29,420 nt of DNA, from contig CAZVZC010000026.1 of the NCBI GenBank assembly GCA_964631415.1, positions 1-29,420 on the forward strand. Reading direction: 5' to 3'. The first letter of the stretch is position 1. Every line of letters starts with the position of its first letter. The position numbers were made by a program, and so were the translations under genes. Under the pieces are notes generated by a model. That model saw nothing but the letters and a program-made list of their open reading frames with translations, ran no database searches and was not told the origin of the DNA. Origin of the DNA: an uncultured archaeon. GTDB lineage: Archaea; Asgardarchaeota; Thorarchaeia; Thorarchaeales; Thorarchaeaceae. This document shows positions 1-25,641 of the stretch, piece after piece.

Positions 1-128
1 AGGCACCATACGCAGCGAACCTCAAGTATGAGGTCGATTCGTGTGTTGAATGCTTTAAGACCAAGGACCTTGGTGAGGGAATCGCCGCTCTCTTCGAGAA
101 GCGTCGTGGCAAGTTCACAGGTGCCTAG
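1..128 (+). CDS. 3' end of an enoyl-CoA hydratase/crotonase-family protein (partial; could be a 3-hydroxyacyl-CoA dehydrogenase fusion)
   Basis: Not in the ORF track. The frame from base 3 reads APYAANLKYEVDSCVECFKTKDLGEGIAALFEKRRGKFTGA* (TAG 126-128), matching the crotonase C-terminal pattern T.D..EG..AF.EKR...F.G and resembling the end of the crotonase at 5405-6190. Confidence 0.85.
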   Translation, partial: APYAANLKYEVDSCVECFKTKDLGEGIAALFEKRRGKFTGA

Positions 129-142
129 ACTCAACATGATTA

Positions 143-184
143 CGACCCCGGCAAATTGAACGGGGTCGCACTTTCTTTTTTTTT
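143..184 (+). terminator. Hairpin plus T-tract terminator
   Basis: Perfect 8-bp stem CGACCCCG (143-150)/CGGGGTCG (161-168), 10-nt loop, then TTTCTTTTTTTTT (172-184), just after the stop at 128. Confidence 0.75.
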
Positions 185-19766: not shown

Positions 19767-21083
19767 GTGCCTGAGCATAAGGCCCGACTTGAGGCTTTGA
19801 GAGTGCTGGAGCTGTACGATCAGAGTCCATATTCTGTGAGGGCCATCCTACGCGAAGCCGACACCCAGTCGTGGATGCCGTCTGATGTCAAGCCCATGGT
19901 GCATTCACTGACGCTGGGAGTGATTAGGTTCCTGAACACGATAGATTTCTTGCTTGTGAAGGCCTTGGGACACAGGAAGTTGTCGGCACTGAGTCCTCGC
20001 GAGCGAACGCTGCTTCGGCTGGCCCTATACGAGAGTCGCTGGGTGAAGACCCCGCTCGAACTCGTCAAGGAGATCTATCTTGTGCCGGTGCCACAGCTAA
20101 TCTCAGTCTTTGAATCCGCACTGTCTCTGGACCTTCAGAGGTCGATCCGGAACTTGACGGCCGTCGAGCGGTATAGCATAAGACTCTCTCATCCCTCGTT
20201 CTTGGTTCGAACACTTCTTGACAACCTTCCGTCCGATGAGGCTATCTCGCTGATGGAGAAGAACAACACATCGCGCGACTACTTCATCCGAGTCAACAGA
20301 CTCAGGGCAGAAGACGAGGATGCCGTCATTCCACGTGCTGTGACTGGAGTCGACTTGGAACCCGATCATGACTTACCGGGACTCTTTCTTGTAAGGCAGG
20401 GGATTGACGCCGTCGTTCGCTCTGACCGGTTCAAGCGAGGTGAAATACTGATTCAGGACAAGGCGAGTGTGATGACGGTTGTTACTTTGGATCCTCGCCC
20501 CGGTGACACCGTGTGGGACGCCTGTGCCTCTCCCGGTATGAAGACCCAACTCATCTGGGAGATGATGAATCGCACAGGTAGGGTGGTGGCGACAGATGTC
20601 TACACCAGACGTGCTAGAATCGGTCGTCAGAGATCCGAACTGCTAGGCTGCAGCGAGGTGGAGTGGCTACAGGCTGACGCTTCTCGGTCTCCGGTATTGA
20701 ATGCGAACAAGATACTCATCGACGCGCCATGTACCTCCACTGGAGTCCTCCGCAGCCACCCGTCGTTCAAGTGGCGGCTCAACAAGAGCACATTGCTTGA
20801 CATAATGTCTATACAGAACAAGATCCTTGATGGGGTACTAACGGCCTATTCCGAAAAGCCCGGCACAGAGGTAGTGTATGCCACGTGTTCCTTACTCCCA
20901 CATGAAGGGGAGTCGCAAATCGATTCTGCTATGACTAGGCATAGATTTGAGCTTGTGCGACCGCCTATCCCGAATTCCCCTGGATATCCCAACTTCAGGT
21001 GTTCACAGAGAGTGTGTAGACTATTTCCTCACCGGCATTCGACGAACGGTTTCTTCATAGCCCACTTGCGAATCACTCGGTGA
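19767..21083 (+). CDS. rsmB: RsmB/NOL1/NOP2-family RNA m5C methyltransferase with NusB-like N-terminus
   Basis: IRVN, IQDKAS, DACASPGMKT, ILIDAPCTSTG, VYATCS, FPH...NGFFIA. Confidence 0.9.
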   Translation: MPEHKARLEALRVLELYDQSPYSVRAILREADTQSWMPSDVKPMVHSLTLGVIRFLNTIDFLLVKALGHRKLSALSPRERTLLRLALYESRWVKTPLELVKEIYLVPVPQLISVFESALSLDLQRSIRNLTAVERYSIRLSHPSFLVRTLLDNLPSDEAISLMEKNNTSRDYFIRVNRLRAEDEDAVIPRAVTGVDLEPDHDLPGLFLVRQGIDAVVRSDRFKRGEILIQDKASVMTVVTLDPRPGDTVWDACASPGMKTQLIWEMMNRTGRVVATDVYTRRARIGRQRSELLGCSEVEWLQADASRSPVLNANKILIDAPCTSTGVLRSHPSFKWRLNKSTLLDIMSIQNKILDGVLTAYSEKPGTEVVYATCSLLPHEGESQIDSAMTRHRFELVRPPIPNSPGYPNFRCSQRVCRLFPHRHSTNGFFIAHLRITR

Positions 21084-22008
21084 TACGACGATAGACAGAG
21101 TCCATGACTCGTCTGGCAAACTCCCTGTCATCCTTGAAGCCCCAAGGTATGCTGAGGAATTTCGTCTTCGCCTCTTCTATGGACGAGATGTTTCTGCTCA
21201 CGTATCCCTTGAACACGAGCTTGGTCCATATGAAACACGGGTTGTCATTGAACTTGTCCCTTTCTCCCGAATCGGCAGCGACCTTAGCCAAGTAGGACAT
21301 GCCCTCCATTGGCTTGCCTAGCATTAGGTCTGCCATGGCCGCCATGCATGCAAAGATCACAGCGTTCTTGAGCATACCAGACTTGAGGTAGGTCTCAGCG
21401 CTGTCTCTGTACTCCTGAGCCTTCTTAGCATATAGCTGTCGCCCGTCAACGACGATGACGTCCTTACTCTCTTCTTTGTCAGCCTTTCTCAGGCTGATTC
21501 CACTTAGAAGGCTGGCCTTCAGTTCGGCCTGCATATCTGTGACCGGAGCGTTTTCGGTCTTCTTTCGGGCAGACTCAATGAGACCTTGCCCGGCTCTCAC
21601 AAGCATCTGTTTTGTCGCAGGATTCCTCAAGGAAGAGTCTGTACGGTTCAATCCCTCTTCGAATACTGACCTTGCATACCGAAAGAACTCATATCCTCTG
21701 TCGGTGAGGCCGAGCCCTGATGCGAAACTGATACCCTTTACGTATGCCATGATTGCATTGTCGAGTTCCTGCAGATTTTCGAACTGGGTCGCAGAGTCTA
21801 TCAGCCAAGGAAAAGCGTCGGTACTGCCCAAGTCGATGGCCTCTTGCCCTTTGGACAGAGACTTGTACGCATCAACGCATATCGGCGCCATGTCCACGAT
21901 GGAACACTTTGTCATGACCTCAGGCTTAGCAAGAATCTGGTTACGAAGTCTGCATGAGTGACCTGATGTCGATGCCTGCAACCAGTCACATTTTCCGCCA
22001 GCGGCCAA
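21073..22008 (-). CDS. Hypothetical alpha-helical (TPR/SNAP-like) protein with Cys-rich N-terminus and an internal WH2-like motif
   Basis: 311-aa ORF, TTG start after AAGGAG; Ala/Tyr-rich helical repeats; QAELKASLLSGISLRKA. Confidence 0.8.
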   Translation of the reverse strand: MAAGGKCDWLQASTSGHSCRLRNQILAKPEVMTKCSIVDMAPICVDAYKSLSKGQEAIDLGSTDAFPWLIDSATQFENLQELDNAIMAYVKGISFASGLGLTDRGYEFFRYARSVFEEGLNRTDSSLRNPATKQMLVRAGQGLIESARKKTENAPVTDMQAELKASLLSGISLRKADKEESKDVIVVDGRQLYAKKAQEYRDSAETYLKSGMLKNAVIFACMAAMADLMLGKPMEGMSYLAKVAADSGERDKFNDNPCFIWTKLVFKGYVSRNISSIEEAKTKFLSIPWGFKDDREFARRVMDSVYRRITE

Positions 22009-22140
22009 CTGCTAGTTCTCCTTTGTCAGGGGTTACGCCCAATCCCCATATCTGTTGTGTTTCGAGTCCTAAAAAGGAAACGCCAGTCGCAGCGACACCC
22101 TTTTGAGTGTTCCCTCGCCGAACCCGACGAGGACTCCACG

Positions 22141-22545
22141 TTGAGCGACGACGATTCCGAGCTCGCAATCATACGCCGAAAGAAGATGGCAGAGCTCGCG
22201 GCACGTGAGAAGAAGATTCAGGCGACCAGAGAACACGACCGGAAAGTGGAGGTCGAGAGAGGTAAGATGCTCAAGAGGGTTCTCGATGCCGATGCAGATG
22301 CCTATCTTCAGGGTCTCAGGAAGAGAGAGCCGGCCGTGGGCGCGAAGGTCGAGGAGATCATACTCTACTTGATAGTCTATCGAGGTCTTCGTGAAACTGT
22401 CACTCAGCTGGACATAGTCTACATTGAGCGTCAGGTGAAGGGCGAGGAACCCAAGATCCGTGTTCAGCGTGACGGCGAAACATCCGATTTCGGCGAATAC
22501 GTGAGAGACGCCATGAAGAAATCAGAACGGAAAGAAGATGGTTAG
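22141..22545 (+). CDS. PDCD5/TFAR19-like double-stranded DNA-binding domain protein (divergent)
   Basis: DSELAIIRRKKMAEL, R..ML..VL...A...L, P.....VE..I..L, KIRVQR; TTG 22141 after GAGGA. Confidence 0.75.
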   Translation: MSDDDSELAIIRRKKMAELAAREKKIQATREHDRKVEVERGKMLKRVLDADADAYLQGLRKREPAVGAKVEEIILYLIVYRGLRETVTQLDIVYIERQVKGEEPKIRVQRDGETSDFGEYVRDAMKKSERKEDG

Positions 22546-22673
22546 CCGAATGAATTCGGTCGCGCTCTCCACTCCTTGATCCTGTATTGCAGTTCCTGTG
22601 TCTTGCCTTCCTGCTTTCTCCAAGTACTGGCAGTCCGCCGCATTTCAAGTACGACTGCTCCACCTCTGGCCAT
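22542..22673 (-). CDS. Possible 43-aa basic small protein
   Basis: MARGGAVVLEMRRTASTWRKQEGKTQELQYRIKEWRARPNSFG; GGAG 6 nt before ATG and a GATATA box about 35 nt upstream; fills an otherwise empty gap. Confidence 0.35.
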   Translation of the reverse strand: MARGGAVVLEMRRTASTWRKQEGKTQELQYRIKEWRARPNSFG

Positions 22674-22766
22674 TCTCTGCTCCAATATCCCAACCGCCGC
22701 GACATGGTATATCTTGAATAGTAAGCAAATCCACTTCACATCGGCATGCTTCATGAGGATGCTGAA

Positions 22767-23519
22767 ATGCAGCTGTTCGATGCCCATACTCACATTGACA
22801 TGCCCCAGTTTGACGCAGACCTTCCCCAGGTCATTGAGCGGGCAAGGGCCAGCGGACTTCTTGGAATGGTGAGCTCATCCACGGGTCCAGACTCGCTGCG
22901 AAAGACCCTACGAATTGCGAAGGACTACAGAGAGTACATCCATCATTCGGCAGGTTGCATGGTCTCGAGGATCACAAGACCGGACGTAGAATCTCTGGTT
23001 GCATTGACCAGCGCTCATAGGAGTGAGGTTGTTGCTGTAGGTGAGGTGGGGCTGGACTACTACTGGGTTCAGTCGCCTCATGAGAGAGAGGAGCAAGCAC
23101 AGCTGTTCAAGGCCTTCATACAGCTGTCCTCAGAGCTCGACTTGCCACTCGTGGTCCACTCACGCAAGGCAGAGGCGGAGGCTGCGGCTATTCTAGAGCA
23201 CGAATGCTCAGTTTCCGTCTTGATGCACTGCTTTGATGGTCCAATTTCCGTGGCCGAGCGAGTCCGGGACAATGGTTGGTCCATATCATTGCCTGTGACT
23301 TTCCGAGCTTATCGCAACCGGGTCAGAGCAGCTCAGACTATGCCCTTGAACCAAATCATGCTGGAGACTGACGCCCCCTTCCTATCCCCAAGCCGCAAGC
23401 GAAATGAGCCGGCCAATCTGGTCTTGGGCTGCAGAGCTTTGGCTGACCTATTGGGGCTGCCGGCCTCGGATGTGGCGGCGGCAACGGTCCGGAACGCGAA
23501 ACAGTTCTATAGAGTCTGA
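22767..23519 (+). CDS. tatD: TatD-family deoxyribonuclease
   Basis: DAHTH, GEVGLDY, VHSR, MHCF, ETDAP, RNEP; ATG 22767 after GAGGA. Confidence 0.93.
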   Translation: MQLFDAHTHIDMPQFDADLPQVIERARASGLLGMVSSSTGPDSLRKTLRIAKDYREYIHHSAGCMVSRITRPDVESLVALTSAHRSEVVAVGEVGLDYYWVQSPHEREEQAQLFKAFIQLSSELDLPLVVHSRKAEAEAAAILEHECSVSVLMHCFDGPISVAERVRDNGWSISLPVTFRAYRNRVRAAQTMPLNQIMLETDAPFLSPSRKRNEPANLVLGCRALADLLGLPASDVAAATVRNAKQFYRV

Positions 23520-23583
23520 GCCGTTCGACCAATAGTGCCAAAAGCGCACTTAGCAGAACCAATGGTGCTAGGATGGTGCTGTC

Positions 23584-24378
23584 ATGTATGTCAGACGCTT
23601 TGTGGACGTCGAACCCAGTTCACTGAGGGCGCCTGTGGCTGTCATAGGGCTGCCCGGAATTGCGAATGTGGGCAGGATAGCAGTTGAAACCCTGACGAGA
23701 GTCCTTGATGCGGAGCACATCATTGACTTCTACAGCAACGACTTTCCACCCCGTGTATTCGTCAAAGATGGACTGACTCAGTTCCCAAAATCATCTATCC
23801 ACCTATACCGAGCCCCCCCTGACGAACCGCATGATATGTTGATCCTGAGTGCAGACTTTCAGCCCTCATCTAGTGCTGGAGTGTTCGAGTATGCAGACTT
23901 CTTCGTTCAAGAGCTTGTAAACATGAACGTGAAGGAGCTCTATGCCTTGGCGGCCTATGAACAGGGTTACGAGGAGTTCTTCAACTCGTACCCGGCCCCA
24001 CCTCGGGCATACATCTCGGCGAGTTCTGAGGAAATGCTCGAACGCATCTCTGCTGTCGAGGGCACAGTCACCACGAGGGAGGGGGTGATCAATGGGGCAA
24101 ACGGGTTCATCCCGGCGTGGGCTGCCACAATGTACGACATGGAGGGGGCATGTCTTCTTGGCGAAACTCTTGGAATAATCAAGCTGGACTATAGGGCTGC
24201 CAAACGTGTACTCGAGATTCTGGCCAGTCTGATAGGTCTGAGTGCAGAGTTCGAGTCAATCAACGACAACGTGTCTCAGGTGGTCCAGTTCATTGAATGG
24301 GCTCGTAATGAAATATCGCAGAAGGGGTCATACTTCGAGGGTAGCCGCGAGAGCCCTCCTGACAGGTACATAGGCTAG
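23584..24378 (+). CDS. PAC2-family proteasome assembly chaperone
   Basis: GLPGIANVGRIA, FPP.V, D.QP, I.G.NG, GACLLGET, D..AAK, C-terminal YIG. Confidence 0.88.
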   Translation: MYVRRFVDVEPSSLRAPVAVIGLPGIANVGRIAVETLTRVLDAEHIIDFYSNDFPPRVFVKDGLTQFPKSSIHLYRAPPDEPHDMLILSADFQPSSSAGVFEYADFFVQELVNMNVKELYALAAYEQGYEEFFNSYPAPPRAYISASSEEMLERISAVEGTVTTREGVINGANGFIPAWAATMYDMEGACLLGETLGIIKLDYRAAKRVLEILASLIGLSAEFESINDNVSQVVQFIEWARNEISQKGSYFEGSRESPPDRYIG

Positions 24379-25092: not shown

Positions 25093-25641
25093 TCAGTCGA
25101 TTGAAGCACCAGTGTCTTCCTTCTTCTTGACGACTCTGCTTTCGGAGGGGCCTTTCAAGGCAAGCCATATCACGAACAAACCCAAAGGGACGCCAACAAT
25201 CCATGGAATGAACAGGATTAAGAATATCCCGACGCACAAGAGCACACCAGAACCAAGGCCGCGTTCTTCCTGACTAACAACACTCTCAACTACGATCTTC
25301 TCGCCAACTCCTGAAAGGGGTGTGGCACAGTTCTGGCATCTGAATTGACCATCGAGGCTCCTTTGAGTGTCGAAGTAGACATAGGTCGCGCCACACTTCG
25401 GGCACTTGATACTCACTCCATCAATGCGCTCGGTAGTCACGACCCTGCCCGGCGAGCCGCCTTGTGATGGCTCTGCCATGATCTGGATTCCGCCAAATCC
25501 AATTCGGCTATTGCAGTTTTGGCATCTGAAATAGCCCTCTGCGTCTGCGTTCTCCTGCATGTAGGAGTACGTAGCACCGCAGTGCAAACAGGTAATACGG
25601 ACAGTCGTCCCTTCATGACTGTGTGACAACCTTCCAGCCAC
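25093..25641 (-). CDS. Tandem zinc-ribbon membrane protein
   Basis: CLHCGATYSY...FRCQNC and CPKCGATYVY...FRCQNC, followed by a hydrophobic hairpin (VLLCVGIFLILFIPWIVGVPLGLFVIWLAL). Confidence 0.8.
   Translation of the reverse strand: MAGRLSHSHEGTTVRITCLHCGATYSYMQENADAEGYFRCQNCNSRIGFGGIQIMAEPSQGGSPGRVVTTERIDGVSIKCPKCGATYVYFDTQRSLDGQFRCQNCATPLSGVGEKIVVESVVSQEERGLGSGVLLCVGIFLILFIPWIVGVPLGLFVIWLALKGPSESRVVKKKEDTGASID

Follow-up and report, generated by a model that had tools for sequence, protein, structure and literature searches.

We analysed a stretch of 29,420 nucleotides from an uncultured archaeon of the Thorarchaeaceae (assembly GCA_964631415.1, contig CAZVZC010000026.1), hereafter the window, and focused on a motif that an earlier note, made from the sequence alone, had placed at positions 21481-21537, inside the protein encoded at 21073-22008, and had likened to the actin-binding WH2 motif. 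The translation agrees with this placement. The strand, which the note had not given, is the minus strand, on which these positions are translated as DMQAELKASLLSGISLRKA (residues 158-176 of a protein of 311 residues); the plus-strand reading of the same positions is nonsense with a stop. We found that the motif is strongly conserved, that it lies in a setting predicted to be flexible and exposed, that it resembles WH2 at the level of sequence profiles, and that the same genome encodes a eukaryote-like actin. From this we infer that the motif may bind actin in the manner of WH2, with a probability that we put at roughly 0.4. The protein would be a credible candidate for a new archaeal actin-binding protein, and the new Asgard actin regulator suggested in the earlier note is the hypothesis that we weigh below.

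The linker motif and its likeness to WH2

We measured conservation in 27 homologues that are 52-92% identical to the query. Residues E162, L163, K164, A165, G170 and L173 are invariant among them, and at least 90% of them have K175 and L168. Residue 174 is K or R and residue 176 is A or V, followed by E/D-K as in LKKVE, and the family consensus of the motif reads DMQAELKAxxLGGVSLKKA. The pattern G.SL[RK]K, whose conservation among homologues the earlier note had proposed to check, is thus well kept. Column entropy averages 0.76 bits over the motif, as compared with 2.11 and 1.59 bits in the two linker flanks and 1.0-1.3 bits within the folded domains; no other stretch of the protein is as well conserved, despite the setting of the motif in a low-confidence linker. 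Conserved islands of this kind in flexible and otherwise variable linkers usually mark short linear binding motifs. The motif, as the most conserved part of the protein within such a linker, is best read as a functional linear motif whose partner is itself very conserved.

The setting of the motif was assessed with two structure predictions. The first (AlphaFold2, full length, 27-sequence alignment) has a mean predicted local distance difference test score (pLDDT) of 74.7. The second (AlphaFold, residues 150-311) was built on an alignment of 36 Thorarchaeota, Hodarchaeales and other relatives, and has a predicted template modelling score (pTM) of 0.71. In the first model, helical hairpins (residues 40-151) are followed by a short helix (159-168), coil up to residue 188 and a second helical domain (189-310), with pLDDT values of 31-49 for residues 151-190. 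The second model shows a helix at 157-167 and then coil, with block means of pLDDT of 40-49 for residues 150-189 and values below 50 for 166-186. The motif is docked on neither helical domain in either model, and is predicted to be exposed, flexible and unburied. The earlier note had described it as lying in a linker between two helical blocks, and this is what the full-length model predicts, with the motif between the two helical domains at pLDDT below 50; the second model agrees over residues 150-311. Burial in the fold, which by the same note would have refuted the WH2 reading, is predicted by neither.

WH2 motifs are defined as elements of ~17-20 residues, with a short N-terminal helix followed by an extended LKKT or LKKV, which are disordered when free and whose basic residues pair with D24/D25 of actin (PMC5792643). 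The layout of the motif, as read from the sequence, fits this published definition. Both models predict a helix (157/159-168), with an i, i+4, i+8 stripe formed by M159, L163 and [VI]167. An extended core of the L-K-K-[TV] type comes after the helix, with a glycine at position -3. The low pLDDT and the lack of docking in both models are consistent with disorder and accessibility in the unbound state.

At the level of sequence profiles, the likeness to WH2 is real. In an unbiased test, we searched a profile of the linker (51 residues) against 177,635 distinct PDB sequences and obtained only two matches at E ≤ 10, the tandem WH2 of N-WASP (3m3n_W, E = 2e-4) and the WH2 of WAVE2 (2a40_C, E = 0.32). 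Both are WH2 constructs co-crystallized with actin. The alignment with 2a40_C starts at the helix, covers 27 profile positions and goes past LRRVE; it includes the glycine and the basic core. The cores with which the motif aligns are GIQLKKVE and GFQLRRVE in the N-WASP and WAVE2 constructs. When the linkers were searched in isolation, Pfam WH2 (PF02205) was the family matched by most of them (4 of 26, best E = 0.017), and in whole proteins its match falls exactly at the motif (P0066, residues 167-179). The motif has in common with the WH2 of WAVE2 and N-WASP (PF02205; 2A40, 3M3N) a short helix, the G-x-x-L-[KR]-K-[AV]-E that comes after it, and predicted disorder in isolation. Relative to WAVE2, the aligned positions are the glycine (-3), a hydrophobic residue (-2), the leucine (0), the basic residues (+1/+2) and a small or aliphatic residue (+3), together with L163 and [VI]167, which align with the first Leu and the Ile of LLxxI. 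The two differ in that the invariant E162, K164 and A165 are not WH2 features, and in that the motif occupies the linker that joins two folded helical domains of an archaeal protein and is not part of a long, disordered region of the VCA type at the C-terminus. The WH2 reading of the earlier note is partly supported; scores below threshold, weak amphipathicity and a lysine in place of the second leucine speak against it.

Three other motif classes were considered by eye and rejected: the ESCRT-III MIM1 (LxxRLxxL[KR]), because the spacing does not fit and the GG breaks the helix; UIM, because the Ala/Ser spacing is not conserved; and RPEL, because R-P is missing at the position four residues ahead of E-L.

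Relatives in other Asgard lineages

The C-terminal domain is the core that the family has in common with other Asgard lineages. In four other families (f15, f16, f18 and f22) it occurs alone or with other N-terminal parts. For example, it makes up entire proteins of ~170-200 residues in f15 and f18, and in f16 the Cys/TPR part is kept with a long acidic, Thr/Pro-rich linker and no motif. Degenerate forms occur as well, such as EEL..KKGTTVLE in family f10. In a genus of the Hodarchaeales/Heimdallarchaeota (g44), 20 of the 21 genomes carry the C-terminal domain behind a quite different N-terminus. These proteins start with MPWPF-(K)6-LPxPPS, continue with a variable number of proline-rich repeats (GPPRQ, PPIHK, LPPPP), and then read ..[LI]xxEIxxEL[RK]x[RK]xFGSx[ML]-K-K-[AVT]-P.. 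before the helical domain. Their motif, ..DEIHAELRQRDFGS.MKK[AVT]P.., lies directly behind the proline-rich repeats, and they have no TPR domain. Examples of these genes are L070:342-1247 (+), L062:736-1506, L076:414-1358, L063, L064, L069 and L075 (proteins P0132-P0185; motif DEIxAEL[RK]..FGS.[ML]KKxP). The same Hodarchaeales genomes encode a second, shorter paralogue.

When the Thorarchaeota and Hodarchaeales motifs were compared with hhalign, AELKA..GGxSLKKA was placed on AELRQ..GSS-MKKV (probability 90%, E = 1.6e-6), and a joint alignment agrees. By these alignments, the Hodarchaeales motif is positionally homologous to that of Thorarchaeota. The E-L, the glycine and the hydrophobic position are retained in Hodarchaeales at ~15% overall identity.

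The architecture that characterizes WASP/WAVE, WIP and Ena/VASP is a proline-rich tract followed at once by a G-actin-binding motif. The proline-rich repeats directly before the Hodarchaeales motif give these proteins a suggestive resemblance, in architecture, to factors of the WASP/VASP/verprolin type. The features held in common with WASP/WAVE, WIP/verprolin and Ena/VASP are found in the Hodarchaeales relatives only: a polybasic stretch, proline-rich repeats, helix-G-x-[ML]-K-K-x-P and a folded helical domain. The Asgard proteins differ from these factors by having no Arp2/3-binding C/A region, EVH1 or coiled-coil, and the Thorarchaeota protein of the window also has no proline-rich region. 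We detected no homology of WASP/WAVE, WIP/verprolin or Ena/VASP to the family. Profilins of Heimdallarchaeota and Thorarchaeota bind polyproline in vitro (PMC8410842). One may envisage a free-standing WH2-type G-actin-binding motif that precedes eukaryotes and occurs in one Asgard family under two forms, a Cys4-TPR form in Thorarchaeota and a form with polybasic and polyproline parts in Hodarchaeales, the latter recruiting profilin-actin and G-actin as an assembly factor akin to a primitive WASP/VASP/verprolin module. We regard this extended scenario as unlikely.

Actin as a putative partner and the alternatives

The genome encodes one actin (L002:1501-2637), which matches eukaryotic actins at E ~1e-160, in line with the statement of the earlier note that Asgard archaea encode actin. 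This protein is 92-100% identical across the window's own family of genomes (f1). In Thorarchaeota actins, G27-E28 is invariant and D29 nearly so; we take this G-E-D stretch to occupy the position of D24-D25 in rabbit actin.

The mechanism that we propose is as follows. The gene would be the Thorarchaeota form of an undescribed Asgard scaffold, composed of a four-cysteine cap, a TPR/SNAP-like domain, a linker of ~40 residues and a helical C-terminal domain. The linker would bear a short linear docking motif, D-M-Q-A-E-L-K-A-x-x-L-G-G-[VI]-S-L-[KR]-K-[AV], disordered when alone. Upon binding, the short helix would place its M159/L163/V167 stripe in the hydrophobic cleft at the barbed end of the actin monomer. 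The extended G-x-x-L-K-K-[AV] would then run over actin subdomain 1, where L173 would occupy a hydrophobic pocket and K174/K175 would pair with the acidic E-D pair that is kept by Thorarchaeota actin. With a single motif, the protein may hold actin monomers or deliver them to partners of its two helical domains, and would not nucleate filaments by itself.

A contact of this kind has a parallel in Asgard gelsolins. The Thorarchaeota gelsolin uses an LRRV 'WH2-like' core on actin (PMC7444086), and the gelsolins of Thorarchaeota, Heimdallarchaeota and Lokiarchaeota (2DGel) have an LRRV/LKHV/LVDV core of this type between two domains (PMC7444086, PMC9433394). Hence, an archaeal L-basic-basic-V element on actin subdomain 1 has a precedent, and the surface of Asgard actin is compatible with it. 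In the gelsolins, however, the four-residue core comes after a folded gelsolin domain that itself fills the cleft, whereas the helix and LKK of the linker would need to act as a free-standing WH2. The two families are unrelated.

Several results weigh against actin as the partner. The E-value of 2e-4 for 3m3n_W is the sum of three weak repeats of G-x-x-L-K-K-x-E. All WH2 scores are under the Pfam cut-off, with at most 12.2 bits vs 23.1 among the whole-protein scores listed (P0066, E = 0.15), and the window's own protein has no match to Pfam WH2. The helix has an Eisenberg hydrophobic moment of 0.08-0.13, as compared with 0.41 in WAVE2 and 0.32 in N-WASP, and in the family an invariant Lys takes the place of the second Leu in the WH2 'LL' pair. 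A strict regular expression, [LIVM]x3[LIVM]x2Gx2L[KR][KR][AVTI], matches 2 open reading frames (ORFs) of the 2.16-Mb genome vs 1.2 expected from shuffles. A hidden Markov model (HMM) of the motif, run against all ORFs of the genome, retrieved only this gene; the motif is not portable here. The residues that are best kept across Thorarchaeota and Hodarchaeales are the E-L of 'AEL[KR]' and not the hallmarks of WH2, and LKK drifts to LEK, LAK, LVK, LQD and LQH in subgroups of Hodarchaeales, and to VLE, IIP and ILS in more distant relatives. The attempt to replicate the profile result with the Hodarchaeales motif failed: its profile has no WH2 match in PDB (three unrelated matches at E 0.7-0.95) nor in Pfam. 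Finally, there are no cytoskeletal genes next to the scaffold gene in the inspected loci of Thorarchaeota (30 loci) or Hodarchaeales, where the neighbours are housekeeping genes.

These results leave room for a docking motif that is real and exposed and binds a partner other than actin, the likeness to WH2 being convergence on 'helix + G-x-x-L-K-K'. Candidates for the partner would then be the clients or co-factors of SNAP/TPR-like adaptors, for example an AAA ATPase or a protein that is SNARE-like or related to ESCRT; another conserved housekeeping protein is also conceivable. We consider this possible, if on the doubtful side. Conservation and disorder indicate only that something binds. The invariant E-L-K-A is not among the residues conserved in WH2, several relatives have lost the basic pair, and the Hodarchaeales profile finds no WH2. 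The gene is syntenic with RNA-modification, PDCD5, TatD and PAC2 genes. The best structural match of the whole model is Sec17/alpha-SNAP (Z = 14.1, root-mean-square deviation (rmsd) 13.6 Å, 194 residues), gamma-SNAP scoring Z = 12.2, and the C-terminal domain alone retrieves Sec17 first (Z = 13.7, rmsd 4.1 Å, 123 residues) and gamma-SNAP second (Z = 11.8). In addition, the neighbours found with a language model are archaeal clusters carrying Pfam SNAP, every score being below 0.9. However, the likeness to SNAP is one of fold: Z values of ~13-14 are common among unrelated helical repeats, and Pfam SNAP (PF14938) matches 1 of the 27 members, at 12.3 bits vs a cut-off of 25. Furthermore, no search returned another motif class, and WH2 is the sole match of the Thorarchaeota linker profile.

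The motif could also serve its own protein, and this we find improbable. The helix would cap the TPR-like domain, and G-x-x-L-K-K would be a hinge or latch on the protein's own groove, involved in autoinhibition or in the angle between domains; its conservation would then be structural. Because several TPR matches of the full-length model reach residues 170-173 (LGN 42..171, FLU-TPR 42..172), the helix 159-168 would sit at the position of the next TPR or capping helix. It is weakly amphipathic, with alanines on its far side, as in packed helices, and relatives keep 'helix-G-x-x-hydrophobic-hydrophobic' without the basic pair. Yet, both models give pLDDT below 50 to the helix and the next 20 residues, whether the TPR domain is present or not. 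The motif is also undocked on a C-terminal domain that is modelled very confidently (pLDDT 89-97 in the second model), and Hodarchaeales relatives without a TPR domain still keep it.

The earlier note had warned that so short a motif may match by chance. This applies to the bare pattern, which makes a match in a single sequence worthless as evidence by itself, but not to conservation, which exceeds chance. A fortuitous resemblance to WH2 in a linker without specific function is very improbable: the pattern is found at the frequency expected from shuffles and the family scores are all sub-threshold, but the motif has eight near-invariant positions down to 52% identity and shares the E-L, the glycine and the hydrophobic position with Hodarchaeales, and neutral linkers do not behave so.

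Binding of actin in the manner of WH2 is thus the reading that we favour, and it would have consequences for the origin of actin regulation. Eukaryotic nucleation and elongation factors handle actin monomers through free-standing WH2 motifs as their basic module, often beside polyproline tracts. To our knowledge, the only other proteins with such motifs are bacterial effectors that act on host actin. Hodarchaeales have been named as one of the archaeal lineages closest to eukaryotes. In the parts of the literature on WH2, Asgard archaea and actin that were available, the actin regulators described are profilins and proteins of the gelsolin/cofilin type, and WH2-like elements of Asgard archaea are found only as the four-residue core of gelsolins. 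A search of the searchable literature found nothing on the protein family studied here. The new elements in this analysis are the result of the profile search in PDB, the proline-rich form of Hodarchaeales, the failed replication in this lineage and the caveat on amphipathicity. If the motif binds actin, the WH2 module predates eukaryotes and occurs within a conserved, single-copy gene of housekeeping type, which would give a concrete and cheap-to-test entry into the control of the actin monomer pool in Asgard archaea. If it does not, the family is still an uncharacterized Asgard scaffold of wide conservation, and the partner of its clear functional linear motif deserves to be sought.

The scaffold, its locus and the actin genes

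The features of the scaffold gene are listed in table 1. The TTG start of its ORF is plausible, because most of the 226 homologues that we found have ~311 residues and align from the first residues, including the near-invariant Cys7. These homologues, nearly all annotated as 'hypothetical protein' in metagenome-assembled genomes of Thorarchaeota, cover 94-100% of the query. Used as a single query, the window's own protein has no match in Pfam, NCBIfam or PDB sequences.

Table 1. Position in the window of the scaffold gene and of the parts of its product.
Feature	Position	Strand	Description
Whole gene of the unnamed Thorarchaeota/Asgard family	21073..22008	minus	311 residues and stop, TTG start (ORF list, translation)
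N-terminal module with Cys7, Cys19 and Cys35	21892..22008	minus	residues 1-39; Cys44 in the first helix
TPR/SNAP-like helical-hairpin domain	21556..21891	minus	residues 40-151; pLDDT 71-90
Flexible inter-domain linker	21445..21555	minus	residues 152-188; pLDDT 31-49, variable outside the motif
WH2-like motif	21481..21537	minus	residues 158-176; short helix DMQAELKAxxL, then GG[VI]SL[KR]K[AV]
Conserved helical C-terminal domain	21076..21444	minus	residues 189-311; pLDDT 89-97 in the second model

The N-terminal module has a cysteine spacing of about C-x11-C-x15-C-x8-C in residues 1-44 (window 21877-22008, minus strand). All 27 homologues have C19, C35 and C44, and at least 90% of them have C7. 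The same four-cysteine pattern recurs in distant relatives that lack the motif (L065, L071 and L073). AlphaFold2 predicts short beta strands at residues 10-26, with low to moderate pLDDT. Given the conservation of the cysteines, this cap is probably a metal site. The C-terminal domain has two further conserved cysteines, C221 (invariant) and C258 (present in at least 90%); the protein ends with ..RRITE.

The N-terminal helical domain resembles TPR domains in structural comparison (LGN, Z = 13.5, rmsd 4.5 Å, 122 residues). A search of ESM-Atlas by shape returned only generic TPR proteins, and neither model has a Foldseek match at E ≤ 0.001. The scaffold, as modelled, has features in common with alpha- and gamma-SNAP and Sec17 (PF14938; 9CRU, 2IFU, 1QQE): a size of ~290-310 residues, an all-helical fold, N-terminal TPR-like hairpins and a C-terminal helical bundle, in addition to the structural and language-model matches given above. 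It differs from them by having two halves parted by a flexible linker of 40 residues, a four-cysteine cap and no match at the sequence level, and the full-length profile did not retrieve SNAP among PDB sequences. As there is no sequence match above the cut-off and the Z values are at the level of helical repeats, we named the scaffold 'TPR/SNAP-like' and make no claim of membership in the SNAP family. In the 27 members, Pfam matches of the N-terminal helical domain are to Vps35, MIT, TPR and SNAP, all weak and sub-threshold. Vps35 (PF03635) is matched by 13 of the 27 over ~70 residues (55-125, aligned to profile positions 533-604 of 726), and the members listed score 10.9-15 bits vs a cut-off of 35 (best E = 3.6e-5). 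Vps35 and MIT were rejected as short, sub-threshold matches to helical hairpins.

We scanned 301 genomes of the phylum for the distribution of the gene. A full-length copy is present in 66 of the 76 sampled genomes of f1, usually with one match per genome, and also in two neighbouring families. The locus is highly conserved: in all 30 inspected loci of Thorarchaeota, the gene lies between a convergent gene of an RsmB/NOP2-type methyltransferase and a gene of a PDCD5-like dsDNA-binding protein, which is divergent from it in all of these loci except one (L060). A TatD DNase gene (+) comes after the PDCD5-like gene in those loci that are long enough to show it and is followed, in the window, by a PAC2 proteasome-assembly chaperone gene (+). 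The scaffold gene thus behaves as a conserved single-copy gene, whose transcription is from the strand opposite to that of its neighbours. In the window, the order of genes at 19767-24378 is methyltransferase (+), scaffold (-) and PDCD5-like (+), and the 3' ends of the first two overlap by 11 nucleotides (21073-21083). The Hodarchaeales relatives have amidohydrolase, DUF123, deaminase and carbamoyltransferase genes as neighbours. Further along the window (25093-25641, minus strand), a protein of 182 residues has several sub-threshold or borderline matches to zinc ribbons (IS1595-type, TFIIB-type, DUF7836) and looks like a tandem zinc-ribbon protein.

We made two additional observations on actin genes. 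At the genome's own actin locus (L001:1333-2616, contig C46), the longest ORF starts at a TTG 48 codons upstream of the ATG at L001:1477 (MAEDEF..). This extension is probably not translated, because the conserved actin starts at that ATG in all relatives. The second observation concerns three Thorarchaeota relatives of different genera, whose actin genes have an insertion of 30 nucleotides at the same codon (L014:1531-1620, L016:1531-1620 and L017:1531-1620, minus strand); the actin of the genome studied here is without it. The insertion lies between ..SLKTFQ and MWVSRKEF.. and reads AAAIPVAAW and a stop; beyond it, the actin frame runs on to its normal C-terminus. It contains a conserved 9-bp hairpin flanked by CCAG/CUGG, and removal of the 30 nucleotides restores Q-K-M-W, which makes it a candidate for a mini-intron or for a truncated or split actin.

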